Below, piece by piece: positions 4,335 through 60,501 of a stretch of DNA of 60,501 nt (the stretch's first letter is position 1; each line of letters opens with the position of its first letter). This DNA is from a virus (Duplodnaviria > Caudoviricetes). A model generated the notes under the pieces. The model did not search any database, was not told where the DNA came from, and saw only the letters and a program-made list of their open reading frames with translations. Made by a program: the position numbers and the translations under genes. The stretch spans positions 1 through 60,501 of the IMG/VR virus record IMGVR_UViG_3300028189_000001; one strand, written 5' to 3'.

Positions 4335-4937
4335 ATGAGTAACACTAAAGATTACACAAATGTTTTTAACACATTGAATTCAATTGATGTTAAACCAATG
4401 ATTGAAAAGAAGGGTAAGATGAATTACGTTTCTTGGTCACACGCTTGGCGTTCAGTCAAGACATTATTCCCTAACGCCACACGAAAAGTATACGAGGCAG
4501 AGAATGGCTTGAACTATTTCACAGATGGAAGAACTTGCTTTGTAAAAGTTGGAGTAACTATTAATGATGAGGAGATGATTGATTATCTACCTATCATGGA
4601 CTATCGGATGCAGAGTATTACTGCTGACAAGGTAACTTCAATGGATGTTAATAAGGCTATACAACGTAGTATGACCAAGGCTATAGCTATGCATGGACTT
4701 GGCTTAGAGTTATGGTATGGTGAGGACTTGCCAGTTGAGGAGAAGAAAGACCCTAACAAAAAAGCTAAGCTATCTACCGACTCTCCTAACTATGACAAGG
4801 TATTGGTATTTATAGAGGGCAAGGCTAAGTCAGGAGTATCATTCGCAAAATGTATGACTGACATTGAGAAGAAGTATGAGGTAACACCTCAAACTAAAAA
4901 AACTCTTAGTGCTAAATATAAATCAGCATCAGTCTAA
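4335..4937 (+). CDS. Single-strand annealing protein (DUF1071/Sak3-like, Rad52 fold)
   Basis: YVSWSHAW, LPIMDYR, DVNKAIQRSMTKAIAMHGLGL.L..GED motifs. Confidence 0.85.
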   Translation: MSNTKDYTNVFNTLNSIDVKPMIEKKGKMNYVSWSHAWRSVKTLFPNATRKVYEAENGLNYFTDGRTCFVKVGVTINDEEMIDYLPIMDYRMQSITADKVTSMDVNKAIQRSMTKAIAMHGLGLELWYGEDLPVEEKKDPNKKAKLSTDSPNYDKVLVFIEGKAKSGVSFAKCMTDIEKKYEVTPQTKKTLSAKYKSASV

Positions 4938-5662: not shown

Positions 5663-5672
5663 ATATATTATT

Positions 5673-5972
5673 ATGAGTGAAAAAAAAGAAGTGCTATTTG
5701 CAGATGGAATTTATTTTAAAAGAAATGAAAACGCACCAGAGTTTGTGGTGGGCAAGGTTAAATTTAAAGTTGATGAAGCTATAAAGACCTTGAAAGAATT
5801 CCAGAGTGATGGATGGTTGTCAGTTGATATCAAGCAATCAAAGAGTGGAAACTACTATGTAGAAGTTGATACTTGGAAGCCTGAAGGTGGGTTTAAGAAA
5901 AAAAAAAATGACACACCTGTGACAGAAAATGACACACCTGTGACAGAAACTACTGAAGAACTACCATTCTAA
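5673..5972 (+). CDS. Putative single-stranded DNA-binding protein
   Basis: Small beta-rich protein with acidic EELPF tail, in the recombination module. Confidence 0.65.
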   Translation: MSEKKEVLFADGIYFKRNENAPEFVVGKVKFKVDEAIKTLKEFQSDGWLSVDIKQSKSGNYYVEVDTWKPEGGFKKKKNDTPVTENDTPVTETTEELPF

Positions 5973-6186
5973 CTATCAGTTATTTACCATTAAAATATGG
6001 GGAGGTAATGACAATCCTCCCCTATTTTTATATATATACAACTAATAACTTTCTAATATTTGTATATTTTTTTTTATTGATTTTGATAAATTATCAGTCA
6101 TTCAGTCATTAAGGACTTATAAATATTGATAATCAAATAGTTAAAAGGTAAATGCATCTGTCATTTATCTGTCATAAATTGTCACT
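5908..6186. repeat. Inverted TGAC/GTCA iteron array 1 (putative replication origin)
   Basis: RTGACA x4 at 10-11 bp spacing (5908-5945), ATGACA at 6008, GTCATTCAGTCATT at 6097-6110, TGTCAY x3 at 6159-6185, IHF-consensus AATCAAATAGTTA at 6131-6143; directly upstream of the primase. Confidence 0.6.
5997..6029 (+). terminator. Rho-independent terminator after the SSB gene
   Basis: GGGGAGG...CCTCCCC followed by a T run. Confidence 0.6.
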
Positions 6187-6204
6187 AATATAAATTAAAC
6201 ACAA

Positions 6205-8631: not shown

Positions 8632-9008
8632 TGGAGTATAAACAAATTGTAAACCAGTTAGCAGGTCAGGCTTTAAGAGGGCTTGACTTTGCTGACATAA
8701 TAAATAATGTTATGAAGATGAATAACCGTAAAAAAATTGAAGTCTTATTAAAAGCTAGAAGGCATTTGATAGATGGTGATTACAGATTCATATGTACGTC
8801 TGTAAAAGCTGTTCTCCTGAATGATTCTGGAATAAGGGTTAGCTTAACTGATGTAGGAATAAAGTTCTTTCCTGAGCTGAGTGCTTACATCCCTATTAAA
8901 CCACATGAAAAACTCACAGGCTTAGAGGTAAGATTAAATATCATTGATACAATAATTGATATGATATTGTTTGAGGATAATGTAAAACTAATGTCAATAA
9001 AAAAATAA
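8631..9008 (+). CDS. Hypothetical protein
   Basis: ORF coupled to the primase stop. Confidence 0.6.
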   Translation: MEYKQIVNQLAGQALRGLDFADIINNVMKMNNRKKIEVLLKARRHLIDGDYRFICTSVKAVLLNDSGIRVSLTDVGIKFFPELSAYIPIKPHEKLTGLEVRLNIIDTIIDMILFEDNVKLMSIKK

Positions 9009-9011
9009 GTT

Positions 9012-9101
9012 ATGTTTAAATTTAAAATGAGTAACACCGAGACAGCAATTGTATGGCTGATTACAGCCGTTTGTATAACATTAATAATAATAAATAACTA
9101 A
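9012..9101 (+). CDS. Small hydrophobic peptide (29 aa)
   Basis: Translated by hand; exactly fills the intergenic gap. Confidence 0.35.
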   Translation: MFKFKMSNTETAIVWLITAVCITLIIINN

Positions 9102-9103
9102 AC

Positions 9104-9565
9104 ATGGAAATATTAAAAGCAATAGAAAAACTATTCGAGGGTAATTTAGAAATACTCGTTAAGAAAAATAATGACTATGCTTCATCAGAGCCTGAGAATT
9201 TCTTCAGGAACTTTGAGGCATCAGCTCATGTCGCAGGTATATCAGTAGAGCAAGGTATCATAGTTAGATTAATGGACAAGGTTTCTAGGATAAGTAATCT
9301 ACTAACAAAAGATGCTAAGGTAGAAGATGAGAAGATAACTGATACTATATCAGACCTCATTAACTATGCGGCTATACTATACGCCTACTTAGATAGGGAG
9401 CATAGCTTGTTTGAAAACTATAATCCTGATAGCGAAGATGATTGTGAGCCTAGTAATGAGGAGTTAGATAGTATGGTAATTGAAGACTTTTGTACAACAA
9501 CATTTACCTATAAAAAAGGTGATACCTGCTGTCATTCAAGTATAAATAAGTCAACAACTTATTAA
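9104..9565 (+). CDS. Nucleotide modification associated domain 1 (DUF1599-like) protein
   Basis: KKNNDYA, FRNF, IIVRLMDKVSRI, DTISDLINYA. Confidence 0.8.
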   Translation: MEILKAIEKLFEGNLEILVKKNNDYASSEPENFFRNFEASAHVAGISVEQGIIVRLMDKVSRISNLLTKDAKVEDEKITDTISDLINYAAILYAYLDREHSLFENYNPDSEDDCEPSNEELDSMVIEDFCTTTFTYKKGDTCCHSSINKSTTY

Positions 9566-9599
9566 TATTTTTTGTATCTTTACATCTTAATAAAATTTT

Positions 9600-9833
9600 A
9601 TGATAGAAATATTAAGCCACACCATTTTTAATGGGGAGAAAGGTAAGGATATTCCTTATCTTCACGAAATCAATTCGCAAGATGAATTGAATGAACACCG
9701 AGCCAAGCTTCTTAAGAAATACTTAGCCAAGAAACCTAAGGTACATCACATACAGCACAATAAAGAGAAACCTCTTCGTGTATTTTTTACATTAAGATAT
9801 TCTCCTGATGAAACGAGGAGGCTGCGTGGGTAG
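9600..9833 (+). CDS. Hypothetical protein
   Basis: ORF downstream of a promoter-like TATCTTTA at 9575. Confidence 0.6.
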   Translation: MIEILSHTIFNGEKGKDIPYLHEINSQDELNEHRAKLLKKYLAKKPKVHHIQHNKEKPLRVFFTLRYSPDETRRLRG

Positions 9834-10041
9834 TATATGGGATGATATGCGTAATCCAGCAGAACAGCTAGAGAGATTAAAGTCTATGCTTAAAGTTATG
9901 GAACGCAAGGTTCCTGCGAAGGGTCAGATAAAACGCAGGGGTCAAGAGGCACATATGGTATATAGGTTTAGAACAACATCTGACAATGAAATTAGAATTA
10001 AATTAAATAATAAAATAAAAGAATATGAAATACACAATTAA
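9808..10041 (+). CDS. Hypothetical protein
   Basis: ORF in operon. Confidence 0.5.
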   Translation: MKRGGCVGSIWDDMRNPAEQLERLKSMLKVMERKVPAKGQIKRRGQEAHMVYRFRTTSDNEIRIKLNNKIKEYEIHN

Positions 10042-10486
10042 AAAGGGGAGGCATTATGCCGCCTTTACAATCAACAGACTATTTCCATTTAGCAGTAGAA
10101 GTAAAGAGGGGAGTATAAAGTTTTCTAAAGAATGCCTAGAGGAAGGGGATATAAGTGGGTGGAATAAACTCACAGGCATAGCTAGTGCAGAGATTCATAA
10201 GAACTCAGGCAGATTAGTGTGGCGTTCTAACGGAAATTCAATAATGATATCAGGTTATGTCTATATGAATGGAGTAAGGAGAGAGATGTTAATCACAAGT
10301 ATAGATGTGGACAAATGGTATGACTTCAGTATTGAGTACTCTAACAAGGTTTGGAGGTTCAGTGTTAATGGTAGACAGATACTCATGTCTGGATATCTTC
10401 CTAGCAATGTACTAAACTTTAAGTGTTTCCCATACTTTGGAGGTCAGAGTGTAGCACCTCAGACTATGTATGTATGGGTTAAGTAG
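10025..10486 (+). CDS. Beta-jelly-roll protein resembling polysaccharide lyase family 14
   Basis: NKLTG...SGRLVWR...GYVY...YFGGQSVAP parallels the PL14 pattern GKLPG/R.MWR/Y.Y/FFGG. Confidence 0.5.
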   Translation: MKYTIKKGRHYAAFTINRLFPFSSRSKEGSIKFSKECLEEGDISGWNKLTGIASAEIHKNSGRLVWRSNGNSIMISGYVYMNGVRREMLITSIDVDKWYDFSIEYSNKVWRFSVNGRQILMSGYLPSNVLNFKCFPYFGGQSVAPQTMYVWVK

Positions 10487-10491
10487 TTCCG

Positions 10492-11724
10492 ATGGAGTTA
10501 AGAGACTATCAAGAAAAAATAAAGAACGAAGGGTTGAAAATCATTAGGCAACATCGCTTATTGTATCTATCAATGGAGGTGAGGACTGGAAAGACCCTCA
10601 CTTCCTTAAGTATAGCTCAAGAGCTAGGGGTAGATAATGTCCTCTTCATCACAAAGAAGAAGGCTATCTCTTCTATCAATGATGACTATGATAAGTTATG
10701 TCCTCACAACTTTTCTTTATTTATTATAAACTATGAGTCTATGCATAAGCTTTCCAAGATAAAATGGGATATGATTATATTGGATGAGGCTCATACGCTA
10801 GGTGCTTTCCCTAAGCCTAGCAAGAGAAGTAAGCAATTAAAAGACTTACTAAAAACTAATTATTCATTTGTGTGTTTGTTGAGTGGAACGCCTACACCTG
10901 AATCATACAGTCAAATGTATCATCAGGTGTATGGCATACCCACTAATCCTTTTAAACAGTACACAAACTTCTACAAATTCTGCCATGATTATGTAGATGT
11001 GAAGCAAAGAAAGATAAATGGTTTATATATCAATGATTATTCTAGAGGAAAGGATACAATACTTGATGCAATGAAACCATATACCATAAGCTACACTCAG
11101 AAAGCAGCAGGCTTTGAGTCTGAGATTCAGGAGGAAGTCTTATACGTTCCAATGAAACCAATTACCTACCAGTTAGTTAAGCGATTAAAAGATGATTTAA
11201 TTATTGAAGGTAAGTCAGGTGAGGTTGTCTTAGCAGACACAGCAGTTAAGTTGATGATGAAGCTTCATCAGTTGTACTCAGGCTCAGTTAAGTTTGAGTC
11301 AGGCAACTCTATGATAACCGACACCTCTAAGGCAGAGTTCATAAAAGAAAACTTTGCAGGTAAGAAGATAGGTATATTCTATAAGTTTAAGGCAGAGTTA
11401 GAAGTCCTCAAGGAAGTATACGGAGACAAGCTAACAACAGACTTGAAAGAGTTTGAAATTACAGACAAGAATATAGCCTTGCAAATTGTGTCAGGTAGAG
11501 AAGGCATCTCATTAAGATGGGCTGACTACTTGGTATACTACAACATTGATTTCTCAGCCACAAGTTATTGGCAGTCGAGAGATAGGATGACTACTAAAGA
11601 TAGGACTTTCAACAAGGTCTATTGGGTTTTTGCTGACAAAGGTATGGAGAAGGATATATACAAGGCAGTTACTAAAAAGAAGGACTACACGTTAAAACAT
11701 TTTAAACGAGACAATGAAGACTGA
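10492..11724 (+). CDS. SNF2-like superfamily 2 helicase
   Basis: LRDYQ, MEVRTGKT, ILDEAH, LSGTP, GREGISL, QSRDR. Confidence 0.9.
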   Translation: MELRDYQEKIKNEGLKIIRQHRLLYLSMEVRTGKTLTSLSIAQELGVDNVLFITKKKAISSINDDYDKLCPHNFSLFIINYESMHKLSKIKWDMIILDEAHTLGAFPKPSKRSKQLKDLLKTNYSFVCLLSGTPTPESYSQMYHQVYGIPTNPFKQYTNFYKFCHDYVDVKQRKINGLYINDYSRGKDTILDAMKPYTISYTQKAAGFESEIQEEVLYVPMKPITYQLVKRLKDDLIIEGKSGEVVLADTAVKLMMKLHQLYSGSVKFESGNSMITDTSKAEFIKENFAGKKIGIFYKFKAELEVLKEVYGDKLTTDLKEFEITDKNIALQIVSGREGISLRWADYLVYYNIDFSATSYWQSRDRMTTKDRTFNKVYWVFADKGMEKDIYKAVTKKKDYTLKHFKRDNED

Positions 11725-11959
11725 ACAACAAGTCCAAAGCAAACTCATTAAAGAGCTGGAAGCTAAGGGGTATTACGTTCTCAAGCTTGTCAAGACAAAC
11801 AAAAATGGAATACCTGATGTGTTGGCTATACCACCTGACAGTGACGTTGAGTTCTATGAGGTCAAGCGTAAGAATGGTAAAGCTTCTAAGCTTCAAGAGT
11901 ATAGATTAAAAGAACTAAACAATCTAAATATTAAAGCAGAAATATATAGAGGTGATTAG
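11714..11959 (+). CDS. VRR-NUC nuclease
   Basis: EQQVQ, GIPD, EVKR, SKLQ. Confidence 0.88.
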   Translation: MKTEQQVQSKLIKELEAKGYYVLKLVKTNKNGIPDVLAIPPDSDVEFYEVKRKNGKASKLQEYRLKELNNLNIKAEIYRGD

Positions 11960-11961
11960 CT

Positions 11962-12102
11962 ATGAAGAAAACTATTGAACACAAAATATGGTTTGAGTGT
12001 GACCATTGTCATACAAAGAGCAGGGATTATAAATTTATATCAACAACAGATGATGATAGCTTTGTAAGCTGTCCAGTCTGCACTAAACAAAATAGACTAT
12101 GA
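11962..12102 (+). CDS. Small Zn-ribbon protein (46 aa)
   Basis: Translated by hand; CDHC...CPVC; ATGA overlap with the next gene. Confidence 0.65.
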   Translation: MKKTIEHKIWFECDHCHTKSRDYKFISTTDDDSFVSCPVCTKQNRL

Positions 12103-12851
12103 GAAATTTTTTTGAAAGGCTAAGGTTTTATCTTAGCAGAATACCTGATTATACTACATTAAATTACATAGACAAAGATTCTGTTGTAATTGATGCTAAG
12201 AACATTACCTTTGGCAATATGCCTTGGAAGAAAGGGTGGACTAAAAGTTTTAACTCCAGTGACGGTGACCCATTTTTCAGACCTTCACGCCCTTGGAATA
12301 CCTCACTAAGTAAGCCGCAGAATTGTTATACTGAAGACGGTTTAATTAGATTAACATTCCCTAAGAACCAAATAAAAGATGCATATATGCAGTCTAACTT
12401 TACAATAAAGATAGGTACAGTCAAGGCAGTTGTTAAGGTTCCTAACGTTAAGTATGCGTGGTCAGCCTTCTGGTTATTTGGCGAGGATGGTATGCCTGAG
12501 TGTGATATGATGGAGCACTGTGGTTCTTGGAAAGATGAAGTATCAGTTACTCATCATTGGGGATATGACTATAACAATATTAGAGGCAAGAAGATGACCC
12601 ACAACAATGCTAGAACTAACAGAAAGTTTAAGCCAACTGAAAACTTTTACCTGTATGAGGTTGAGCTAACTCCTTATGAAGTTATATATCGTATCAACGG
12701 TATTGTGGTACGCAAAATGAAACAGGGTGTTCCTTCAGGAGGAAATAACATTATCTTTGATGTAACTCAAGGTAATTATTGCGACAATGGCATCCCAACA
12801 CAAGATGCAACGATGGAAATAAAACAAATAATTATAAATAAAATATCATAA
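12099..12851 (+). CDS. Glycoside hydrolase family 16 protein
   Basis: WSAFWL followed by catalytic E-C-D-M-M-E (ExDxxE); F..Y.VE.TP..V.Y.ING. Confidence 0.8.
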   Translation: MRNFFERLRFYLSRIPDYTTLNYIDKDSVVIDAKNITFGNMPWKKGWTKSFNSSDGDPFFRPSRPWNTSLSKPQNCYTEDGLIRLTFPKNQIKDAYMQSNFTIKIGTVKAVVKVPNVKYAWSAFWLFGEDGMPECDMMEHCGSWKDEVSVTHHWGYDYNNIRGKKMTHNNARTNRKFKPTENFYLYEVELTPYEVIYRINGIVVRKMKQGVPSGGNNIIFDVTQGNYCDNGIPTQDATMEIKQIIINKIS

Positions 12852-12856
12852 ACACA

Positions 12857-13378
12857 ATGAAAGAAACAGATTTAATTATTAAACTGGTAGAAAGAGAATT
12901 TAATATTGATAATATATTAACTAAGTCTAGAGAAAGACAATATATTGATGCAAGAATGTTTGCATATCAACTGATGAGAGACCTAGACTATAGTCTAGTA
13001 CAGATAGGTAGGCGTATGAACAAGAACCATGCTACCGTTTTGTGGGCTATCAAACAGTTTGGGTATATAAGAGAGTTTGATTTAGATGTTAGTAATAGAT
13101 ACGATAGCTTGTATGTAAAATTAAAAGAAGATTATGAATTGGTTTTAGATACCAACAGAACCAATGATAATCTTAATGATATGCTTAAGAGAAAGCTTGA
13201 TAAGGTTATTCAGGATAATGAAAGAATAACTAAACTCTACTCTGAATTAAAAGAAACAAAGGAAGAGACAGAGTTTGATGATGTATTTAAACTCATTCGT
13301 TCTAAGCTTAATCCTAGGAATAAGGAAGCCTTTTACATAAAAGCAAACGGCATACTTAATGGATTAATAGATAAATAA
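12857..13378 (+). CDS. DnaA C-terminal-like HTH DNA-binding protein
   Basis: KSRERQYIDAR...SLVQIGRRMNKNHATVL. Confidence 0.8.
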   Translation: MKETDLIIKLVEREFNIDNILTKSRERQYIDARMFAYQLMRDLDYSLVQIGRRMNKNHATVLWAIKQFGYIREFDLDVSNRYDSLYVKLKEDYELVLDTNRTNDNLNDMLKRKLDKVIQDNERITKLYSELKETKEETEFDDVFKLIRSKLNPRNKEAFYIKANGILNGLIDK

Positions 13379-13380
13379 TT

Positions 13381-13572
13381 ATGACAAAAATTCCGAGTAC
13401 AGACAAGAGTAGGTTAACCCATATTAATTTTACGACCAATGATTTATACAACAGTGTAGATATAATATCGGAGGCGTTAGTAGATAAGGATTATACCGTG
13501 GCAAAGATGGAGGCACAAGAGTTAATTAAAAAATGCAAAACACTAGCCGATTCTATTATGGGTCGCATATAA
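13381..13572 (+). CDS. Hypothetical protein
   Basis: ORF in operon. Confidence 0.6.
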   Translation: MTKIPSTDKSRLTHINFTTNDLYNSVDIISEALVDKDYTVAKMEAQELIKKCKTLADSIMGRI

Positions 13573-13583
13573 AACTATAAACT

Positions 13584-14690
13584 ATGAGCAGTAAAAGAAT
13601 GAGATTACAGCCTATTGAGGCTCAAATACTAGGAAAAAATACAATGATTAAAGAAAAGGGCAGGGGTACTGTCCGTGCATATCTCAATGAAGAGGAGCAA
13701 AATAAACTATCACAGATTCGTGAGAGTGATTCTGCATTTGAGAATGAATGTAAAGCCCTAGGCATTGAACCTCACACTGTAAGTAATTATTGGTATAAAG
13801 GAAAGCATTTTTCTATACACACCAAGCCTAACCAAACAAACATTGAAGATATTAAGGATGATATTATCTCTCAGATGAATGAGCATTCTCCTAAGTATAA
13901 GAAAGTGTTTCATAGCTCTAAACCTAACCCACACCTGTTAGTTATTGACCCTGCTGATATTCATGTAGGTAAGTTAGCCACAGCTATGGAATCAGGAGAG
14001 GAATACAATATGCAGATAGCAGTGCAAAGAGTTTTGGATGGAGTTCAGGGTATATTGGATAAGTCTAAAGGGTTTCATATAGACCAAATTCTTTTAGTGG
14101 GTGGTAATGATGTGTTACACATTGACTCACCCTCAAGAAAAACCACATCAGGCACACCTCAGGATACAGATGGGATGTGGTATGAGAATTTTATGATGGC
14201 TAAACAGTTATATGTAGATGTAATTGAGATGCTTGCAACCCACGCACCATTACACTTTGTGTTCAATCCCTCTAACCATGATTATATGTCAGGATTTTTT
14301 TTAGCGGACGTTATTAAGTCTTGGTTTAGGCAACACCCTCATGTCTCATTTGACACCTCTGTAGCTCATCGTAAGTATTTTCGGTATGGTAACTCATTAA
14401 TTGGAACAACGCACGGTGACGGAGCTAAGAATGCGACCCTGCCTATCCTAATGGCTCAAGAAGCTCCTAAGGATTGGGCATTCACTAAGCATAGATATAT
14501 CTACACTCATCATCTGCACCATAAGATTGCACAAGATGTAGTTGGTGTGACAATAGAAGCATTAAGAAGTCCGTCAGCTACAGACAGTTGGCATCATAGG
14601 AATGGATATCAGCACGCACCTAAGGCTGTTGAAGGATTCCTCCATCACCCTGAGCACGGTCAGGTTGCGAGGTTAACTCATATATTCTAA
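13584..14690 (+). CDS. Calcineurin-like metallophosphoesterase
   Basis: DIHVG, GGND, SNHD, THGD, HHLHH. Confidence 0.85.
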   Translation: MSSKRMRLQPIEAQILGKNTMIKEKGRGTVRAYLNEEEQNKLSQIRESDSAFENECKALGIEPHTVSNYWYKGKHFSIHTKPNQTNIEDIKDDIISQMNEHSPKYKKVFHSSKPNPHLLVIDPADIHVGKLATAMESGEEYNMQIAVQRVLDGVQGILDKSKGFHIDQILLVGGNDVLHIDSPSRKTTSGTPQDTDGMWYENFMMAKQLYVDVIEMLATHAPLHFVFNPSNHDYMSGFFLADVIKSWFRQHPHVSFDTSVAHRKYFRYGNSLIGTTHGDGAKNATLPILMAQEAPKDWAFTKHRYIYTHHLHHKIAQDVVGVTIEALRSPSATDSWHHRNGYQHAPKAVEGFLHHPEHGQVARLTHIF

Positions 14691-14693
14691 TAG

Positions 14694-15068
14694 ATGACAG
14701 AGGAATTCAAACGTGGTACTATGGATTTATTTGTCTCCATATTTGATGGAACTTATGTATCCGTTCCCAACCAGAAAGATTTAGTAGAGGTGTTTGATTC
14801 CAATGGAAGTCTTATTGCTACAGCTTTGATAGTGGAGGGGGAAGGAGAGATAAAAGACTCCTATCCCCTCACTATCTCAGCACGAAAGCTCTTGCCTACA
14901 CTATCCAACCGAATGACAGTCGTAATTATATGGAGCTGTTCAGATGGTATAATATATGGGAGGCTCAATCAAATTGAAGGCTCCATAAAGTGGGCAGGTC
15001 ACAAAAATTATGGTGAACCTGCCTGTTATTTTTATAAACAAACTAACTTGAAGTACAAGAAAGTATAA
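14694..15068 (+). CDS. Hypothetical protein (possible degenerate PD-(D/E)XK fold)
   Basis: Last + strand gene, convergent with the giant gene. Confidence 0.6.
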   Translation: MTEEFKRGTMDLFVSIFDGTYVSVPNQKDLVEVFDSNGSLIATALIVEGEGEIKDSYPLTISARKLLPTLSNRMTVVIIWSCSDGIIYGRLNQIEGSIKWAGHKNYGEPACYFYKQTNLKYKKV

Positions 15069-15071
15069 AGC

Positions 15072-18000
15072 TTACTTCTTTTTCTTGTTATAATCTTTAT
15101 ATAATTGCCTTAAGGTAACTCTTCTTATATCTTTATATAAAGGTAGTATACCAATTAAACCTAAAGCATCTACTGTTCCTCTTACTTTTAATTCCTTAAT
15201 ATTTTTCTGTCGAGTATCCCATCGGTTACTTGATGTGGCTCTTTGAGCCAAGGTTCCTGCTCTGATTCCTCCTTTAATGTAAGGAGACATCGCACCTGAA
15301 AACCCTTGAATTAAAGTTTTAGAAATGTTACCCTCTGTTAAATCTTGAAACGATACAGGAGAGAACAGTATAGAATGCTCAAATGAATCATAGTCTTGGT
15401 CAGGATAAGACCTTAAAAAACCTCCATGTTCTTTATTCATGGCTTCAACTCCCCAAGCTATAGGCATACGTCCTATTGCTCCTAGATTACGTTGCAATAA
15501 TAGTGTGGCTATTGAACCCGTCAACTGTCGCTTCATCAAAGCCGTGTAGTCTATTTCCTCTTCTTCAAAGTCATCAAATAGCATACTGCCTAGCATGACA
15601 TCAAACATTTCCCTAAGTAAAGAATACATTACCATATAACTAGACATCCTTAGTGTGGCTGCTGCTATTAAGGCTAAGCCTTTACGTCTACTTATTTTCC
15701 CTCCATACACTAACCCTAGGATACCATCTCTAAATGTGGTATATTCATATATCATAAAGGTCTGCATAAATCCGTTTATCTTTTTCCAAAGAACGGTAGC
15801 AGTATTGTCATCAGGGTTTATCTTCCCACTAAGTACACCATTAAATATATTAACAGAGGTGGCTGCCATTGTTACTTCTTTATCAGCCTTAAGTCTAGCT
15901 TTTTTAATAGCTGCTTTATGTTCTTTCAAGTAAGCCTTGTCATTTTCTCTGATAGCATCAAAGTTAATGTCTTGACCACTCTCTTTCTTAAACTCAATAG
16001 CCATTGTTCCAAACCAAAGAGGTCTAGATACCATCATATCAGGTGTTGATATCAGACCTGTGTGAAGGTAGTCTATACCTTTTAGAGGATAGTTTAAATA
16101 TTTTCCTACAACAGAGGTTACCCTACCTGCAACTCCTTTTGCTTTAGCTTTTTTTACAGACTGCTTTGTATCAAACATAGTTGACTCCATGAATTTACCT
16201 AAAGCTTTTCTACCAAATGCTTTGTTAGTGGCTTCAGACAGTGAATTACTCATAATATCCCTACTGTCTGCTCTCATTGAAAGGTTAGCGTATTTACTTA
16301 TACCTACACCATATCCTTTAGGCTGTGCTATCAGTACATACCCTAAGTTAGAAGAAAATTCAGCACCTGCTCTAGGTATGGACGCAAGTAAAGCTTTATA
16401 TCCTATACCTTCCATTCTAGCCAATACACTATTTTTTTTATGAGCCATATTAGAATCGAAAGCTATTTTTAATGCCTCATTAAAAGCATCTCTAACAGCT
16501 ATTAGCGATTCTAAATGTTCTTCGTTTATTTCTGGTTCATTGGATGCTTTGTATATAGCTTTATTTATGGTTCTCTGAATTGTTTTCACAGGATTTGTCA
16601 TATGAAAATCAAGTAGCGTTTCTCTTGCTCCATTTAATGTAGCGGCTAATGGGTCAAAGTTTATATTTTTAACACCCTCTGTTCTTTCTTGTAATGTGCC
16701 TGCCTTTATTGATGCTGATTTAAACCTGTTAAATATTTTTGATACAGCTTGGTTAGCTTGCTTTTCATTAGCATACACAGTATCGTGACGTATATAATTG
16801 TTATACATTGTAGGTCTGCTACCTCCTATGGTTGCTCCTGCATGTAAAGCTTTCTCATATACCACTTCATTAGTTTTGTCAACAACCTTAATCATTTCTT
16901 TTTGAAGAGGGTCAAGCGAATTAAATAATTTCTCTGCTGATATTTCACCATTTTCATCTTGGATACTTTTATCACTAAGAATTTTCTCAAATATTACTTG
17001 GTCTTTCTTATCATAGTATGATACCTCTCTCTTCTTTATACCATCTATCTGAGCTTCAAGAGCTTGTTTACCTGAGAATGTTGTACTCTCTTTACTAGGA
17101 TTTGAATCCCTCTCACGCTGAAGTAGATAGGTCATTACCCTCCACTTGAACTCAGCTATTTTATTAGGATTTCCTATGAATTTATTGTCAATTTTATTGT
17201 CAATATACAATATCTTTTCAGCCAACTTATCTACCTCTGCTCCAAACTTTGACATACTTACACCAGCCTTGCCAAATATCTCATTATATATAGCATGGTC
17301 TTCATGGTTACCAAACACAGCATCTATAGAGTGAAGAGGATTATTAGTTATAGCACTAAGCTCTTTGGTTTTATTCCCAAAAATATACGACCTAATTTTA
17401 GCTGTAGCTTTTTCCACCATAAGCTTTATGCCTCCTTCTGTCTTGTCATATAATATCTCTGACGCTGGTAAAGATTCAGCCTCAATGGCTACGTTGTTTC
17501 CGTATGCAGAAAAGTACCCATTTTTTATTTGGTCTAGTAAATCAGGTATATTTTCTAGCATACTTAAAGGCATTTTCTGTAGCTCCACCTTCTTTAATAG
17601 CTCTAATAAGTAATCTGCCCGCTCATTGTCATACTCATTCTCTGTTGTTTCTTCTACCTTAAAGTCTTTAAGCAAGGTTTTTATTTCTTTCTCAAGCTCC
17701 TCTTTTCTCTCTTGTATTTCTTCCTCAGTTTTAGGTTCACTCTTTAGTGAAGGAAGAATAAGGCTTTTATATTGCCTTATAATGTTAGCGGTTTCTTCAT
17801 CTAACTCACCTTCTTTAACCATTCTAGCAATGGTCTTAGCAAAGTCCACCTTGATACCGTCTTCACCCAAAGCTAGGTTAGGCGATGACATTATAAGACT
17901 GTTGTACAGTGGGATTTTTTCATATACATTACTAACTTCTTCTAATATTTTTTCTGCTTTAGCTACAATAATATCCTTCTGTTCAGGAGTAAGTACAGCT

Positions 18001-21000
18001 TTAGATGAACCGAATTGATTTACTAAAGATACATAATCTTCTAGAACAGAAGCGGGTATAAGCTTAGCTCTAATACTAAACACAGAGTCAAGTAAATCAA
18101 ATGTTGCATTTATAGCACCCACTTTCTTTCTTATATTCTGCTTAGCTTTCTTGCGTATCTTATCACTGCGTACCATTCTCTCAGCTAATTCAGCCTTCTC
18201 AAATATTTTTTGAGTAAACTCTGTGAAATTCTCTACTTGCTTAGAACTAAACACATTAAGTTTCATAGCTTTTTCAGACAGAACAAGTGCTTGATACTGT
18301 GTGAGCTTGCCTATTGTTCTTAATTCTTTTATAGTTTTAATTATTTCTTTAGCTATTCTAGTTCTTTCTTTCAAGGTGTTTCTAGCCTGAGATGCTGATA
18401 ACTTTATCTGCTCTATCAATGAAGTATACTCTTCAGTTGCTACCTGACTATCAACTGTACCCTTATCAACAGCAGTTTGTAATTGACTCTTGATACCGTT
18501 AACAAATCTAGTTATGGTAGCCTTAAGGTTATTTACTTGTTTATCTGTAAGATTTTTTCTTTTATTCCACTTTTCTAGTAGCTCCTGTGCTCTTGATTTT
18601 TGCTCCTTGTTACCATTAAGTAAAGCCTCGTTTAGTTTCTGGGCATACTTTTCAGTAACCTTCTTAGTAGGTGCAACCTTCTTAGTAGGTGCAACCTTCT
18701 TAGGTGTAACCTTCTTAGTAGGTGTAACCTTCTTAGTAGGTGTAACCTTCTTAGTAGGTGCAACCTTCTTAGGTGCAACCTTCTTAGGTGCAAGATTTTT
18801 TTCTCTTAGCTTGCTTAAATCTTTTTTGTTTTTTTCATTATCTACATTAAAACTTGCTGATGCTCTCCAATAATTTTCATTTATATTTTTCTTCTCTTCA
18901 TTGTACTTATCAGTAGAATATATATTCACCCAACCTTCTAACTCCTTAATCTCATTATTATGGTTTTTCTTTAAGGCTTTTAATTTACCATCAACTTCAT
19001 CTATCTTATCTTGAATCTTTTTCTTCTTGTCAAGATAAACCTTATCTGTGCTTTCTACCATAATAGGTTCTGCTTTAGACCCTTTAGTAGATGTATCTTT
19101 GATAGCTTTTTTTAGTAATTGCATATCCCCTCGCCACAATGCAATCTTTTTATTACTAGCTTTAATAGAGTTATTTTTTACATTGGTTGTCCTAGCTAAA
19201 CTTTTTTTATGTTTATCTAAACTCTCCTTAGTTTTAGCATTCTCTATCTTCTTCTTAATATTTGTAGAGTTATCCTTAAATGTATTTAGTACTTTTGTTT
19301 TTTTCTGTTCCTCTGCTTCTATATTATTTTTTAACTCAGCGATAGCTAATTCGGTTGCCTCTTCTTTATCAGCTCTCTGAAACTTAGTATCACTCTCCTC
19401 GTCAGGTCTCCAACTAAAATTATTTTTCTCTTCGTTAGCCCACTCTGCTATCCTTTCAGACCGTAGTACCAGTGGGGGAGCGGCTTCTCTAAGTCCTCGT
19501 CCGCCATCTTGTCTCCATGCAGATAGCTCATCGCTAAGGATTGTGTTAGCTCTTCTCCCAAGGAGTTTGCGAATATCTCCGCTGCTTTTAATGATTCTAA
19601 GTCCACTATCTGTCGCCCATTTTGGGAATCGTTTTCTTGTTTCTTCCTCATTTCTAAAGTATTGTATTGATGAAATTATTAATGACCTTTCTTCTTGTGT
19701 TATGTTTCCTTCTTCTATCTCTTTTACCAAAGCCTCAGATAAATCAAAGAAGTATTTTTTCTCATCATTTGTTCTTTGAGCATTGTTAACTCCAAAGGCT
19801 CTCTGAGCTTCCCAAGTAATTGATTGTAACTCTCTCGCACTTAACCCAACCTCTGCTGCTACTTCTTGGTATGCTTCTTTTATAACATCATACATAGCAG
19901 ATTTACCTTGGTCAAATAACTTGATGCCACCTGCATCATTTACAGAAGCAGGCAGGTTTAAAGCTACGGAAGCTGCGTGAGTATCTGCTGTTATGTAATC
20001 GTTCTCATGGTCAGGGTGTAGAATGTTATTTATAAAGTTTCTAACCTTATTCCCGTAACCTATTTGCACTGAGACATTCTCTCTACTGCCATCTAAGTAT
20101 AGACTAATAGCCTTAGCTATCTCGCTGTTTGAATTCCAAGTAATGGGTGTGCTGTTAAGCACAATATTACCTTTCTCATCCTTAAGTATCTTGCCATTAG
20201 GGTCTGTCTGAGCTACCCCAGAACTATTGTTCGCTTGGTCTTTTATTCTAACAACAGTAGCTACCTGCTGTAGTCTGTTTATGTAATCATTATCAGCCTC
20301 ACCTTTACCTTGAGGTGCAAGCAACTCGTCTATTGTCATTCCAATAAATTCTTTTGCTGCATCAATAGATTTAAGGAAAGTGCTTTTGCTGTCATTACGA
20401 CCAACATAGTTCTTTACCTTTTGCCACTCTTCCTGTGTAAGAGGCTTATCATTTTGATTAGTAAGAACATCCAAGACTCTCTCGGCTCCTGATATATTGT
20501 TGAACCAATCATTTTGTGGGGATAGTACTGCAAGTATACCAGCTACTTGAGGTGTACTGAGTTTGCTACCATCAGGTTTTACATATGTATCCTGAAGGTT
20601 TCTAGCAATTCTATGAGCACCATTATACCACTTCTTTGAATTCTCTATAAATTCAGAGTCTAAGGTATTATATATACTTCTTATATTAGCCTTAGCCATT
20701 TCTTTAAAACCATCCATCACTTTTTTAGCTAAAGGAACCATAAACTTTTCAGTCCAATCAGACTTTTTATCCATTCCACTTTCCTTAAAAAGCTCCTTAT
20801 GATTATCTCTAAGGCGTGATAATTCCTTGGCTTCTCCCATCATTGAAAAGGGTAGAGAAAACTTGGATGAAAATATAACTTTTTTAATTGCTCTATCAAT
20901 GTTATTTTTATCCTTAGCCTCAGCTTCTTTAGCTGTGATGCCGTGCTTTTCTTCAGAATCCTTATAAGTTACACCTTTGTTCCATGTATATATTCCTTTT

Positions 21001-56624: not shown

Positions 56625-58196
56625 CTATACCTCCCCTTCTCTAGCAATAGTAACAATACTATTGGTGCTTAAGATTGTTACAGCTACAGACACAGCATTC
56701 TGTAATGCTTGCCTTGTTACCTTCGTAGGGTCTATGATTCCCATATTAATCATATTCCCACGGTTTAACGTTACCATATCATACCCTACTCCTTTTTCAC
56801 TAAACATATTATCAGGATATAGTGAGTCACCATTTTGTGATGCGTTCGCACAAATTTGTATCATTGGTGAACGTAATGCTTTATACATTATTTTATCTAA
56901 TGGCGTGTCTCCGCAGCAATACTTCGTAGCAATCTCTGCCAACGCTACCCCACCTCCTGATAATATTCCTTCCTCAGTAGCAGAGCGTACAGCTAGTACC
57001 GCATCCTCTACCCTGTCAAATAATTCTTTCTGCTCTATATCAGAGTTTCCTCCAACAAATATCTGCCCAATAGAGCCTGTTAAAGCAGCAACACGACTTA
57101 GTATAAACTCTTTGTCAGCCTTGGTATTACTCACGCTATCAAGGGCAAGCAATTGGTTCACTCTAACAGTTACCAACTCAGGGTCTATACTGTCGTGCTT
57201 TATTAATATTGTATCATCTCTAGACACTACAACCTTATGTGCTAAGCCCAAGTCCTGCTCAGTAATTAGAGATAGGTCATCACCAGTCTTCTCAGAAAAA
57301 TATGTCGCTCCTGTCGCAACAGCTATGTCTTGCATCAGCTCATGCTGACGGTAACCAAATTGTGGTGGAGGAACAGTTGCAATCTTTAAGTTACGCTTCA
57401 TCACATTGGCAGCCAGTGTGTTAGTCACATTGACCGATGTGGGAGCTATAATTAATAACGACTGCCCTTTCTTTATAACAGGCTCCAACACCTTCTCTAT
57501 CTGTAAAACATTTGATATCTCAGCGTCTGATACCAAGAGGCGAACGTCATTCTCAAAAATTACCTCGTCCTTCTTCTGGTCGTTTATAAATAATGGAGTA
57601 GTATAACCCCTGTCAAAACGTATACCGTCTGTTGTCTTATAATATGTCTCTGGTGTGTCACTCTTCTCAACAGTAACAATCCCATCCTTGCCCACCTCAT
57701 TGTAGCACTTAGATATCAGACCGCCCACAAAATGGTCGTTGTTTGAACTTATTATCGCCACATCCTTTAAACGCTTCTTTGATACAGACCTGCTCTTTTT
57801 CTTTAACTCACCTATCACAAACTTAGTCTCGTTAGTTATGTCACGCAATAATTGAGTCCTGTTATCAGTCATGTGCTCAAACCCACACTTGACAAACGCC
57901 TCAGCCAATACAATGGAAGTAGTAGTGCCATCACCAGCAGATGATGCCGTCCGCTCAGCAGCCTCCCTCATCATCCTAACAGCTAAGTTCTCAACTGGGT
58001 CAATAAGCTCTATTGATTTAGCAACAGTCACACCATCCTTGGTCACAGTCAAACCCTGTGTGTGATTAGGTGACTCCATTAGAACAGTGTTGCCGCTACT
58101 GCCTAATGTGCTCTTGACAGTCTTGGATATCTTTGTAATACCCTCGATTAATTTCTTCTGCCCGTCATCACCAAATGTTAAAGTCTTTGGATTCAT
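56625..58196 (-). CDS. groEL: Chaperonin GroEL
   Basis: VTKDGVTVAK, AGDGTTT, FDRGY, RVEDA, GGGVAL, GIIDPTKV. Confidence 0.97.
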   Translation of the reverse strand: MNPKTLTFGDDGQKKLIEGITKISKTVKSTLGSSGNTVLMESPNHTQGLTVTKDGVTVAKSIELIDPVENLAVRMMREAAERTASSAGDGTTTSIVLAEAFVKCGFEHMTDNRTQLLRDITNETKFVIGELKKKSRSVSKKRLKDVAIISSNNDHFVGGLISKCYNEVGKDGIVTVEKSDTPETYYKTTDGIRFDRGYTTPLFINDQKKDEVIFENDVRLLVSDAEISNVLQIEKVLEPVIKKGQSLLIIAPTSVNVTNTLAANVMKRNLKIATVPPPQFGYRQHELMQDIAVATGATYFSEKTGDDLSLITEQDLGLAHKVVVSRDDTILIKHDSIDPELVTVRVNQLLALDSVSNTKADKEFILSRVAALTGSIGQIFVGGNSDIEQKELFDRVEDAVLAVRSATEEGILSGGGVALAEIATKYCCGDTPLDKIMYKALRSPMIQICANASQNGDSLYPDNMFSEKGVGYDMVTLNRGNMINMGIIDPTKVTRQALQNAVSVAVTILSTNSIVTIAREGEV

Positions 58197-58219
58197 ATTG
58201 TAGTTAATTTTATATTATG

Positions 58220-58227
58220 CAAATATA
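58220..58227 (-). promoter_or_regulatory. -7 box TATATTTG for the groEL/late arm
   Basis: Matches TAnnTTTG; just upstream of groEL. Confidence 0.6.
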
Positions 58228-58267
58228 ATAAATATATTAATACTATTTTTAGTGGGTTATAAACATT

Positions 58268-58576
58268 ATGACGTTAAAATGACGCATCAATGACGCATCA
58301 ATTAAAAACTAATTCGCTAACCGCTAGTCTGTTACAGAGGTTTTGTGACAAATGACAACAAAATCCTATAACTGCTGAACAACTTTACTGTAAACGTGCG
58401 TGTTTTATTTTGAGCGTTTTCCCTTTTTATCTGTCATTCAGTCATTATTATAATATATATTATATATTTATTTATTATAAAGTATTAATATTAAGTATAT
58501 TATATAGTATACAGTAAAGAATAAGAGAGATGACAAAAGTAAAAAAGAACTGTCATTGAACTGTCATTGGTGTCAC
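58268..58576. repeat. Inverted TGAC/GTCA iteron array 2 with AT-rich core (putative origin)
   Basis: ATGACG x3 at 11-bp period (58268, 58279, 58290), doublet at 58345/58352, GTCATTCAGTCATT at 58433-58446, AT-rich tract, TGTCAY x3 (58551, 58562, 58571). Confidence 0.6.
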
Positions 58577-58890
58577 ATACATAGAGGTGTTGGGTTATAT
58601 AATAAATTTTAAGTCACGCCCCCCAAAAGAAAAGTTGATTTTTATTTCCTCCCCCCCTCCACATTTCAGATTCCTTCCCCCATTTTTTTGCCGTTTTTCC
58701 TCGCCCGTATAGGATACGCACACGCATGTTTCCTTTCCAAGCGAGAGGGAATCTTCTGCCGTTTTGCGTGAAACATCCTTGTAACACGCTGAGGGTGAGG
58801 GCGTAACCCCTCCATACTTATTCTGCATACATATTTAATCCATTATGATTCTCCGATAACATTCTGATACTCCGACATTTGTAAAATAAA

Positions 58891-58922
58891 TTTGGTAATG
58901 TCAAAAAATGGTTGTAGATTTG
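58891..58922 (+). promoter_or_regulatory. Full Bacteroidota sigma70 promoter (-33 TTTG, 20-nt spacer, -7 TAGATTTG); main early promoter
   Basis: TTTG at 58891-58894, TAGATTTG at 58915-58922. Confidence 0.75.
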
Positions 58923-58926
58923 CAGT

Positions 58927-59240
58927 ATCAATCAACGATAAGTGTAGTTCGCACTTCTAAAACTGGACTGGGTGGCTATCGCCACTCTCTCGCCAAAACG
59001 ACACCTATAAGCTAAAAGCGAATGGGCGTTATTGTGGATAGGGCTTCTGTTGAGAAACACATAGCCATCCCGTTGAATGGGTTGAATAAAACATTCAAGC
59101 GATAACGTAAAAGGTGTTGTGGAGCGTGAGCAAAAATGTGACTATGGTGGTTGCGTGATGGGTATATTACACCCACAACCATACAAATTCGCCACAGCCT
59201 TGCATCCATTGGGTGTGAGGCTTTTGGTGGTATAACTAAC
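58927..59240 (+). ncRNA. Putative structured RNA/leader
   Basis: GC-enriched, no credible ORF, several nested complementary segments. Confidence 0.55.
59191..59240 (+). promoter_or_regulatory. Intergenic hairpin element, class A
   Basis: AGCCTTGCATCC-ATT-GGGTGTGAGGCT...GGTGGTATAACTAA. Confidence 0.65.
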
Positions 59241-59255
59241 TAATAAATAATTATT

Positions 59256-59480
59256 ATGAAAATAACAACTAAAAGATTTTGTGCAGGAGAGTATTATGTA
59301 TATAGAGATGGTACTTATACTGGAACAATAAGTAATTTCACTACTGAAAAAGGTGTATGGGCTGTATTCGATGAGGATAACAACTGGCTTGGAACAACAG
59401 ATACAAAATGGTATTATTTAGATGCCTGTTTGCAGAATAATGAAGGTGCTGATTTATGGAATATATACAATAATAAATAA
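59256..59480 (+). CDS. Hypothetical early protein
   Basis: First ORF after the early promoter. Confidence 0.65.
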   Translation: MKITTKRFCAGEYYVYRDGTYTGTISNFTTEKGVWAVFDEDNNWLGTTDTKWYYLDACLQNNEGADLWNIYNNK

Positions 59481-59492
59481 ATAAAAATAAAG

Positions 59493-59780
59493 ATGGAAAC
59501 ACTAAAAACTAAAAAAATGGAATTAACAACGAAAGAATTAGAATTATTAAATGAGATTAAAGACAGCCAGCATGAAGAGGGACATTCTGAATTTACGAAT
59601 GAAGATGTGCTGGATAAAAAAAGGGCTGGAGTGTTGAGCAATTTGGTTCAAAAAGGATTAGTATATGATTCTTATGAGAATTATGACAAATACGATAATC
59701 CAGACAACACAAAAATGTGGTGTCTTGAACATTCAGCCGTTGATATTGTAGGACTTCCAGAAGAATGGGGTAAATATTAA
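59493..59780 (+). CDS. Hypothetical early protein (wHTH-like)
   Basis: LTTKELELL...AGVLSNLVQKGLV. Confidence 0.65.
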   Translation: METLKTKKMELTTKELELLNEIKDSQHEEGHSEFTNEDVLDKKRAGVLSNLVQKGLVYDSYENYDKYDNPDNTKMWCLEHSAVDIVGLPEEWGKY

Positions 59781-59786
59781 AATAAA

Positions 59787-59831
59787 AGATATTATGGTAC
59801 TCTGGAGGGTTCGAATCCCTCCATATCTACT
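59787..59831 (+). ncRNA. tRNA-like minihelix
   Basis: AGATAT...GGAGGG-TTCGAAT-CCCTCC-ATATCT-ACT. Confidence 0.55.
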
Positions 59832-59871
59832 TAAATAAACATAAATAATTTAAACACTAAAAACTAGAAAA

Positions 59872-60066
59872 ATGGAAACATTAAAAGTAACACCGAATTA
59901 CAGCAAAAGAACATTCACAATTAGAAAATATGACAATGGTAATGTATACTCAAAATATCGAACATCTCCTAGGTCAAGGGAAGAATTTGAATCGGAAGAA
60001 ATGAATACAGAAAGGGATTGGAGATATTTTTTGAGAAGTTCAAACGATTATTCAGTAATAAAATAA
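59872..60066 (+). CDS. Hypothetical early protein
   Basis: RTFTIR...KYRT...EEF...NT..DW..FL. Confidence 0.7.
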   Translation: METLKVTPNYSKRTFTIRKYDNGNVYSKYRTSPRSREEFESEEMNTERDWRYFLRSSNDYSVIK

Positions 60067-60074
60067 CATAACAA

Positions 60075-60105
60075 GGGATGGCATATTGCCCTCCCATAAC
60101 TAAAA
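60075..60105 (+). promoter_or_regulatory. Intergenic hairpin element, class B
   Basis: GGGATGGCA-TAT-TGCCCTCCC-ATAACTAAAA. Confidence 0.6.
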
Positions 60106-60115
60106 CATTAAAAAA

Positions 60116-60454
60116 ATGATAACTTTAAATATTGGATTAAACGATAAAGATACTCAAAAGCAAATTGATATTAATCTTGCTAGAGAGTTATCACAATGTA
60201 CTTACTCACGCTTAGAAAAAAGCGATACAGAACTAACATTAATTTGTGCAGTTAAAAATGATGTTGTTACACTAGACTATATCAATAACTTACTAGAGAA
60301 ACTTAATCAGGACTGCATTGCCGTTAAACTTAGTAATGGTAATGGATACCTAATTCACCATAAGAACCCTACTAAATACTGGGGTGACTTTAACGATGAA
60401 TATTTTATACCAATAACAAAAACTGGAGGAATGCCTAACAATTTTTTTAGATAA
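60116..60454 (+). CDS. Hypothetical early protein
   Basis: LNIGL...E.TL...LNQDCIAV...WGDFN.EYF. Confidence 0.7.
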   Translation: MITLNIGLNDKDTQKQIDINLARELSQCTYSRLEKSDTELTLICAVKNDVVTLDYINNLLEKLNQDCIAVKLSNGNGYLIHHKNPTKYWGDFNDEYFIPITKTGGMPNNFFR

Positions 60455-60501
60455 TACACTTAAAAGCCTTGCTACCATTGGTAGTGAGGCTTAAGGTGGT
60501 A
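60375..60501. repeat. Terminal direct repeat, copy 2
   Basis: Identical to 1-127; 127 nt is a typical assembler k-mer overlap. Confidence 0.95.

Follow-up and report, generated by a model that had tools for sequence, protein, structure and literature searches.

In bacteriophage HK022, the put RNA is a short element of two stem-loops, about 70 nt in all. In T7, a host promoter drives a polycistronic early transcript that begins with a non-coding leader of several hundred nucleotides, and this leader is cut at a long irregular hairpin. Similar RNase III hairpins separate the early genes of T7 and remain on the products as protective 3′ ends. To our knowledge, no conserved multi-helix fold is known for the T7 leader. 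The pRNA of phi29 is made from an early promoter at the genome end, and the CI RNA of P4 and the C4 RNA of P1, each about 70-80 nt long, pair with repeated target sites in their own operon. The folded RNAs of several hundred bases that are understood are ribozymes, protein scaffolds or regulators, and such RNAs are rare.

Here we analyze a 60,501-bp genome of a virus of the Caudoviricetes (IMG/VR record IMGVR_UViG_3300028189_000001). The record is complete, with a terminal overlap, and we refer to this whole stretch of DNA as the window. Its + strand carries a putative structured non-coding RNA at 58927-59230, counted from the predicted transcript start to the end of a terminal composite hairpin. 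Like HK022 putL and putR, this folded RNA begins with the first bases after an early promoter, and hairpins and terminators lie downstream in the operon. However, it is about 300 nt long (about 410 nt in the homologue L086) and has a multi-branched core and a terminal hairpin of its own, rather than two stem-loops in about 70 nt. The two are further set apart by relatives of this phage that have similar operons without the RNA.

The likeness to T7 lies in the hairpins. An 18-bp composite hairpin with an internal loop ends the RNA, and four more hairpins lie between the early genes, each followed by the 8-mer ATAACTAA. The host phylum and the sequences differ from those of T7, cleavage is here a prediction, and the body of the leader, unlike that of T7, is a conserved multi-helix fold. 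The RNA resembles GOLLD, ROOL and the phi29 pRNA in being a stand-alone structured phage RNA without coding capacity, but it is smaller than GOLLD and ROOL, and no Rfam family, these three included, reached E < 6 in 58300-59400. Finally, the P4 CI and P1 C4 RNAs offer the parallel of a small RNA processed from the leader of a phage early operon, as we would predict here. In contrast to those RNAs, ours has no complementary sites above chance in the window; candidate antisense targets were rejected, being genome matches of only 11-12 nt at about the chance level.

Results

Location and predicted promoter

The RNA lies within the 1,059-bp divergent gap between the start of a gene for a GroEL-like chaperonin (58196, − strand) and the first + strand open reading frame (ORF; 59256). 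The − strand genes run from 58196 down to 15072 and encode the GroEL-like chaperonin, tail proteins, terminase, portal and virion proteins. The + strand genes run from 59256 across the record ends to 15068 and include small ORFs without known identity, a Sak annealing protein, a PDDEXK nuclease, a primase/helicase, an SNF2 helicase, a GH16 hydrolase and a DnaA C-terminal domain protein. The first early ORF (59256-59480, + strand) is outside the RNA and encodes 74 amino acids without a family match. A scan of the window found no tRNA or tmRNA. The large terminase and the portal of this phage are of ordinary kinds; therefore, a packaging RNA is not called for.

We found 485 relatives of the GroEL protein in IMG/VR, and the best 80 of these 485 are 55-62% identical to it and come mostly from contigs of about 60 kb. 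The nearest deposited phage by GroEL is MW202828.1 (53% identity), and the Cellulophaga phages phi38:1 and phi40:1 are at 35%. An excerpt of PMC5332604 describes a "group 2" of marine Bacteroidetes phage genomes, kin to phi38:1, many of which carry GroEL. A host in the family Flavobacteriaceae is therefore likely, judging from this kinship. The sequencing runs that share the stretch are mostly marine or seawater metagenomes. Among the 20 runs listed, 14 contain at least half of its words (4 possibly being the source), and runs from 16 studies, of both DNA and RNA, share all or part of it. The DNA runs X5-X15 contain 0.46-0.62 of the words. Of the words sampled from 58600-59300, the RNA run X16 contains 0.31, X17 contains 0.29 and X18-X20 contain 0.06-0.10; DNA carry-over is possible, and we do not take this word sharing as evidence of expression.

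A Bacteroidota sigma-A-type promoter was identified at 58891-58922 on the + strand. It consists of a −33 TTTG, a 20-nt spacer and the −7 box TAGATTTG, and this arrangement, TTTG-N20-TAGATTTG, agrees with the Bacteroidota form in both boxes (TTTG and TAnnTTTG) and in their spacing (about 19-21 nt). The pattern TTTG-N17-21-TAnnTTTG has four matches in the window, compared with 2.6 expected by chance, and the match at 58891-58922 is the sole intergenic one. PMC9723704, the source of this consensus, places the TAnnTTTG box at −12 to −5, and +1 would therefore be A58927, the start given in the preliminary description. That description had placed the RNA directly after the main early promoter, and on sequence grounds the placement stands, with the predicted +1 falling on the first base of the element. 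From the promoter alone, we infer transcription from 58927. A motif scan recovered 114 viral stretches, mostly with unrelated promoters of the Bacteroidota type. In 24 of these stretches an extended −33 motif is followed by a TAnnTTTG box (25 occurrences), and the same is seen in the metagenome contigs L085 and L086; this extended motif is a general, common promoter form. A pattern scan of the window revealed no second consensus promoter in the + strand early region.

Structure of the RNA

The preliminary description had read a series of nested helices directly from the sequence, and we located every one of them. The 5′ segment (58927-58969) has a single-stranded A/C/U-rich start followed by bases with competing pairings, which form either a local hairpin (AAGTGT/GCACTT, 58940-58956) or long-range closing helices with 59120-59130 or 59176-59183. 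The P2 hairpin (58970-58987) has a 7-bp stem, GGGUGGC/GCCACUC (GGGTGGC/GCCACTC in the DNA), and a 4-nt loop. The core domain (58998-59120) comprises P3-P6 and is present in both the window-only fold and the consensus fold. P3 (9 bp) pairs ACGACACCT at 58998-59006 with AGGTGTTGT at 59112-59120 and encloses a small hairpin (59011-59019) and P4. P4 (10 bp) pairs 59026-59035 with 59099-59108, taking in the helix first read as GCGTTATTG/CGATAACGT (59026-59034 and 59100-59108), and encloses a junction with P5 and P6. P5 (GGAT..GGCT/AGCC-ATCC, 59036-59070) has a GAGA loop. P6 (59073-59098) pairs TTGAATG at 59073-59079 with CATTCAA at 59092-59098 and has a 12-nt loop, and UUGAAU is duplicated in it.

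The P7 region (59147-59182) contains the pairing TGGTTG..TGGGT/ACCCA-CAACCA (59148-59181). Its inner hairpin, UGGGU/ACCCA (59159-59175), is constant, and its outer pairing is either GUGGUUG/CAACCAU or a set of alternative helices. The RNA ends with the class A composite hairpin (59189-59230), which has a 6-bp lower stem, a small internal loop, a 12-bp upper stem and a 3-nt loop. In all, we count 13 helices and a multi-branched core. The minimum-energy fold of the window has all of the listed helices except the first local hairpin, the bases of which pair long-range instead. The peripheral and closing helices have two competing arrangements that are inseparable with three sequences, and we take only P2, the P3-P6 core, the inner P7 hairpin and the terminal hairpin as firm parts of the model.

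The + strand of 58927-59240 is predicted to fold at −101 kcal/mol, compared with −81.2 ± 5.0 kcal/mol for 100 dinucleotide shuffles (z = −3.95), and none of the 100 shuffles was as good. The − strand yielded z = −1.91, with 3 of 100 shuffles as good, as expected because the + strand has many G-U pairs. Both the anticipated advantage over shuffled sequence and the abundance of G-U pairs noted beforehand are in line with these values. The RNAs of L085 and L086 yielded z scores of −4.56 and −5.09, respectively, and 0 of 100 shuffles was as good in either case. For the genome background, we folded both strands of 314-nt segments at 44 positions within bases 1-19664 (88 windows in all, with 20 shuffles for each) and obtained a mean z of −1.13 (SD 1.39), with 4 of 88 windows at z ≤ −3.9. 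Therefore, on this partial scan, the fold energy of the RNA is in the top ~5% of the genome and is not unique.

The segment had also been called non-coding and richer in GC than the genome. Its GC content is 44.6%, above that of both the genome (35.7%) and the early region (34.0%). The only ORFs within it are of 35-65 amino acids, and these are broken by four 1-nt indels among the three homologues. No frame is kept among them, as the indels, at columns 189, 201, 272 and 319 of the three-sequence alignment A4, shift every frame.

We searched Rfam 15 (4227 families, including GOLLD, ROOL, HEARO, phage pRNA, 6S-type, C4, hammerhead and riboswitch families) with the gathering score as the criterion. 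The whole window had no match at the gathering thresholds and none at E ≤ 0.1, which accords with the earlier remark that the RNA was not recognized as a known family. At E ≤ 10, the sole match in 58300-59400 was FTX_1 on the − strand, with 14.5 bits against a required 50, which is chance level. The related loci L022, L083, L085, L086 and L087 likewise had no match at the gathering thresholds.

Conservation of the structure

With the 74-aa first ORF as the query, we detected one viral locus (L083), and in the metagenome collection we detected L084 (the contig of L083), L085, L086 and L087. The RNA is present in two of these metagenome contigs, at L085:41-348 and L086:1634-2048, with about 92-93% identity to the window. 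L085 is 92.7% identical to the window over 58887-59265. For L086, the identity is 99.1% across GroEL and the gap upstream (57294-58969) and 92.3% across the RNA, beyond which the sequence is about 80% identical or unrelated. The identity profile of the window against these two contigs shows that the early region is mosaic. The RNA is conserved no better than its best early neighbors (92.3% compared with 92.7% for 59843-60501) and less well than the GroEL side (99.1%). The carriers do not share the gene that follows the RNA: it encodes 74 amino acids in the window and an unrelated protein of 77 amino acids in L085 and L086, neither with a family match. A riboswitch aptamer would be linked to the genes of one pathway or function; here, the next gene changes between the window and L085/L086.

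The covariation analysis is based on three sequences only, and L085 and L086 are near-identical over the RNA, with several events common to both. Alignment A4 has 31 variable columns outside an insertion in L086, affecting 16 of 114 unpaired and 15 of 196 paired columns. In the RNAalifold consensus of the three sequences (98 pairs), 99.0% of cells are paired and five pairs are changed on both sides. Two of these are adjacent in the terminal hairpin, where they separate the window from L085 and L086, two are in P3, and one is in a closing helix, CUCGCC/G-GUGAG. As controls, 9 of 500 shuffles reached 99.0% paired together with five two-sided changes, and a two-sided change occurred in 0 of 6 slid controls. 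Depending on the fold, two to three pairs are broken, in one sequence each: two in P3, and as the third an A.C in a peripheral helix of the window. The consensus structure was chosen with the alignment in view, and we therefore repeated the count on the window-only fold (93 pairs). On this fold, 6 of the 7 changed pairs of L085 stay standard, 2 of them by two-sided changes, and the same is true of 7 of the 8 changed pairs of L086, 3 of them two-sided.

The remaining changes are of a similar kind. P4 has two wobble-compatible one-sided changes, and G59147 is an A in L085 and L086, by which a G-U of the window-type fold becomes an A-U. The P2 stem is invariant and its loop is different in all three sequences (UAUC, UACC and GAUA). 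The P5 and P6 stems are also invariant, with changes confined to the loops, and the core junction nucleotides do not vary among the three. L086 carries a 108-nt self-folding insertion with a closing stem, located in the junction between the 5′ segment and P2, immediately 5′ of P2; no other copy of it was found in the window or in any fetched locus. The four 1-nt indels and this self-folding junction insertion fit an RNA, not a gene. Collectively, these results support the original proposal of a multi-stem RNA element on the + strand, the helices of which tolerate substitutions like those of a selected RNA fold.

Occurrence in related phages

We built a covariance model, R1, that spans P2 to P7 (220 positions, 66 pairs). 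R1 scored the three carriers (the window, L085 and L086) at 263-270 bits, and the best other match, at 14.6 bits, was inside a GroEL gene. Among 166 sources, R1 detected no copy in the 163 loci other than the carriers, the search covering 82 further loci, 80 promoter-motif loci (L088-L167) and L202-L207. It also detected none in 19 near-complete related phage records, each searched whole.

Searches by sequence gave the same picture. With blastn and nhmmer, 58197-59260 was compared with 80 GroEL-linked loci; the promoter and the C-rich part upstream of it were matched in L022 and L025 only, and the RNA was unmatched. A distant blastn search of 50,697 phage records yielded no match. The exact 20-mer 59025-59044 had no match in viral contigs or genome contigs, and 59156-59175 had none in viral contigs. 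A third 20-mer, 59065-59084, had two matches among the genome contigs, in Chloroflexi metagenome-assembled genomes, and we attribute both matches, which R1 rejects, to chance. A scan with a hairpin-stem pattern returned no match, and the two viral-contig matches to a hairpin-flank pattern were both inside coding sequence and were set aside as chance. A search of viral contigs with the first gene of L085 recovered no relative. MW202828.1 and Cellulophaga phage phi38:1 were dismissed as carriers, having different layouts and no R1 match. Literature searches turned up no publication about this RNA or about leader RNAs in this group of phages, which does not prove their absence from print.

A strict-consensus promoter on the divergent strand was present in 12 of the 68 GroEL-linked loci with enough upstream sequence; the other 56 had no locatable promoter. 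In 11 of these 12 relatives, the first ORF (at least 40 aa) starts 26-81 nt past the predicted transcript start. L022, for example, has the same −33 region and a 60-nt leader before its ORF. L083 has a similar promoter, and its first ~20 transcribed bases are like those of the window, after which come ~300 different non-coding bases. On the sequences compared, the cassette that follows the promoter varies from lineage to lineage, and the RNA is one such cassette.

We also considered the L083 leader as a diverged homologue of the RNA. It was rejected, as it does not align, has a z of only −0.81, and has no R1 match with filters off. This alternative leader ends in a T-loop-like hairpin.

The terminal hairpin

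The hairpin at 59189-59230 has a predicted energy of −24.5 kcal/mol (z = −5.07). A second copy of the composite hairpin occurs at 83-124, after an unrelated gene, with stems of 5 bp and 13 bp; each copy folds at about −24 kcal/mol. The boundary hairpin is thus a separate, reusable module. The 8-mer ATAACTAA (59232-59239, + strand) directly follows five early-region hairpins, namely both composite copies and three shorter ones at about 866-886, 2001-2021 and 60075-60095. It is present in 13 copies in the window, compared with 6.9 expected, and 0 of 100 shuffles reached 13.

An intrinsic terminator has a GC-rich stem followed at once by at least five T in eight positions, and the hairpin at 59189-59230 does not have this form. 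Its tail is UUUUGGUGG, which is partly paired in the lower stem. A terminator scan of 58100-60501 identified two terminator-like sites, and neither is this hairpin. Its geometry is instead of the RNase III type, in which a small internal loop interrupts about two turns of double-stranded RNA; here, 6 bp and 12 bp flank a 1×2 internal loop. Since there is no second consensus promoter in the + strand early region, much transcription must pass the terminal hairpin. This hairpin is the likely 3′ boundary of the RNA, as a termination or processing site. Given the T7-like processing geometry and the passage of polymerase, release may occur by cleavage or by partial termination.

Discussion

We estimate a probability of about 80% that the early transcript begins with a real structured RNA element, the first of a new family, at 58927-59230. 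The sequence anatomy, the support for the fold, the non-coding nature and the distribution are directly observed in the window and the loci compared with it, and the comparison of carriers indicates that the RNA does not depend on which gene lies downstream. Our best reading of these sequences is that the RNA is an optional, lineage-specific accessory cassette, set between the promoter and whichever gene comes first.

From transcription through 3′ end formation and release to action in trans, the steps that we propose are as follows. Within seconds of infection, host RNA polymerase would make the RNA as the first part of the early transcript. At the composite hairpin, the transcript would then terminate or be cleaved in a double-strand-specific manner, releasing a stable RNA of ~300 nt, the 3′ end of which the same hairpin would shield. 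The released RNA would be an accessory early factor that acts in trans, most plausibly by titrating a host protein in the course of take-over or counter-defence, and would not be the controller of one particular downstream gene. Relative to its rivals, we give release and action in trans on a host factor about an even chance.

The main rival is control of read-through in cis, by a leader that governs the whole early operon as a put-like processive antiterminator, or as an attenuator or riboswitch with a core that senses a host factor and gates the terminal hairpin. The RNA is the first element transcribed from the only consensus early promoter, transcription has at least five strong hairpins to cross in the early region, and the RNA travels with its terminal hairpin and not with any gene. 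The alternative pairings around P1 and P7 and the duplicated UUGAAU in P6 are, moreover, what a switch would need. However, relatives whose early operons are also punctuated by hairpins have short leaders without the RNA, which counts mildly against an essential antiterminator, and the second copy of the terminal hairpin (83-124) works without the RNA upstream. That hairpin also has a weak U tail and is not scored as a terminator, and a leader of 300-420 nt that tolerates a 108-nt insertion is far larger than put or typical attenuators, by the sizes commonly given for these. We regard cis control as possible but on balance doubtful. Considerably less probable is that the RNA is an inserted passenger without a phage role, a remnant or a selfish small element in a harmless place, the early leader, with a fold that belongs to the element or its past and not to the biology of the phage. 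Its very narrow distribution, the different leader at the same site in L083, the mosaic early region, the further self-contained 108-nt insertion within the RNA of L086, and the lack of excess conservation over the adjoining early DNA would all suit such a passenger. Yet neither the RNA core nor the L086 insert was found a second time in the window or the fetched loci, there are no terminal repeats and no mobility gene, the substitutions keep pairing, and the sharing of the stretch by runs from 16 studies indicates that the carrier lineage persists.

Two further explanations have, in our judgment, very little chance of being correct. One is a self-processing ribozyme that cuts the early transcript, the job of type III hammerheads in a relative. 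In L022, the first early gene is directly followed by a type III hammerhead that scores close to the threshold (47.9 bits, E = 9e-10; gathering score 48.5), and RNA processing modules therefore belong to the early operons of this phage family. The core junction nucleotides are invariant in the three sequences, but invariance says little at 92% identity, and no ribozyme family matched anywhere in the window, even at E ≤ 0.1. The other, equally improbable, is that the divergent control region holds an element acting as DNA, such as a replication origin or a protein-binding array, and not an RNA. The segment is at the strand switch and at the minimum of the cumulative GC skew, the phage encodes a DnaA C-terminal domain protein, and there is one near-consensus DnaA box at 59033-59041, with GTGGATAAC occurring twice in the L086 insertion. 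Against this, DnaA-like boxes are not enriched (21 compared with 22.9 expected, only one of them within the RNA), for which reason we rejected a DnaA-box cluster or origin. The G-U pairs become A.C on the other strand, folding is strongly strand-asymmetric, and two-sided changes that keep pairing are not expected of protein-binding sites.

A more specific proposal can be made, although we hold it as speculation and consider it unlikely to be correct. The RNA would be the first representative of a new class, mid-sized phage RNAs (300-420 nt) made before any other product of infection, and would serve as an RNA-only decoy for counter-defence or take-over, capturing a nuclease, a sensor or an RNA-binding protein of marine Flavobacteriaceae. 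The variable junction domain (the 108-nt insert of L086) and the replaceable cassette (the different leader of L083) would then represent the evolving interface of an arms race.

As a practical matter, three near-identical sequences are known and there is no cultured host. If real, the element would be a new RNA family from marine phages of an abundant, uncultured group, with Flavobacteriaceae as their probable hosts. The RNA would occupy the first-expressed position of infection, where phages tend to put anti-restriction and take-over functions.

Repeated motifs between the early genes

An identical 8-mer, ATAACTAA, lies directly 3' of each of five hairpins located between early genes on the + strand of the window. 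The resulting hairpin and 8-mer modules are located at 83-134, 866-894, 2001-2029, 59189-59239, and 60075-60103. Two of the five hairpins are 18-bp composite structures (class A), and three are of a 9-bp GGGAGGGCA type. Across the window, ATAACTAA occurs 13 times versus 6.9 expected, a count reached in 0 of 100 shuffles. Together, the hairpin and ATAACTAA look like a reusable module for processing or termination.

Hairpins with a T-loop-like appearance also occur between early genes, at 59803-59823 in the window, at ~620-645 in L085 and ~2325-2350 in L086 (metagenome contigs that carry the structured RNA), and at ~441-461 in L083, a related locus whose unrelated leader is closed by one of these hairpins. 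Each has a stem of 7-8 bp and a 7-nt loop, UUCGAAU or UUCGAUU, that resembles the tRNA T-loop. ARAGORN detected no tRNA in the window. The T-loop-like hairpins may be tRNA-like processing signals.

Several early genes in the window are preceded by AAGGAGA words with a strong likeness to the Shine-Dalgarno sequence (895-915, 1616-1635, and 2030-2051). Such words are unusual for messages of Bacteroidota, which published passages and abstracts describe as being without them.

Elements in related loci

In the related phage locus L022, a type III hammerhead ribozyme is positioned directly 3' of the first early gene (2197-2251, - strand of the locus). Its score of 47.9 bits (E = 9e-10) is slightly below the gathering score of 48.5. 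No type III hammerhead was found in the window itself.

The copy of the structured RNA in L086 contains a 108-nt insertion (1676-1784) with two copies of GTGGATAAC, a word resembling the DnaA box, at a spacing of 24 nt. A DnaA C-terminal domain is present in one of the proteins encoded by the phage (window 12857-13378). The window shows no enrichment of DnaA-like boxes.

Elements in the divergent gap

Between the two divergent promoters, positions 58600-58830 form an element that is C-rich on the + strand and G-rich on the - strand, with C runs of 5-7. Folding z-scores were -4.10 for the - strand and -2.04 for the + strand. The GroEL-linked relatives L022 and L025 have a similarly C-rich stretch to which the element aligns weakly (E about 3e-5 with nhmmer), so its conservation extends more widely than that of the structured RNA. 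Possible identities for the element are an origin and another RNA.

Region 58534-58570 contains two copies of a direct repeat, ACTGTCATTG, one at 58549-58558 and one at 58560-58569. Both lie a short distance upstream of a TACTTTTG box on the - strand (58541-58534). At the matching place, L022 has a repeated word of different sequence. The ACTGTCATTG repeat and TACTTTTG box are candidates for the operator and promoter of the leftward genes, which encode GroEL and structural proteins.
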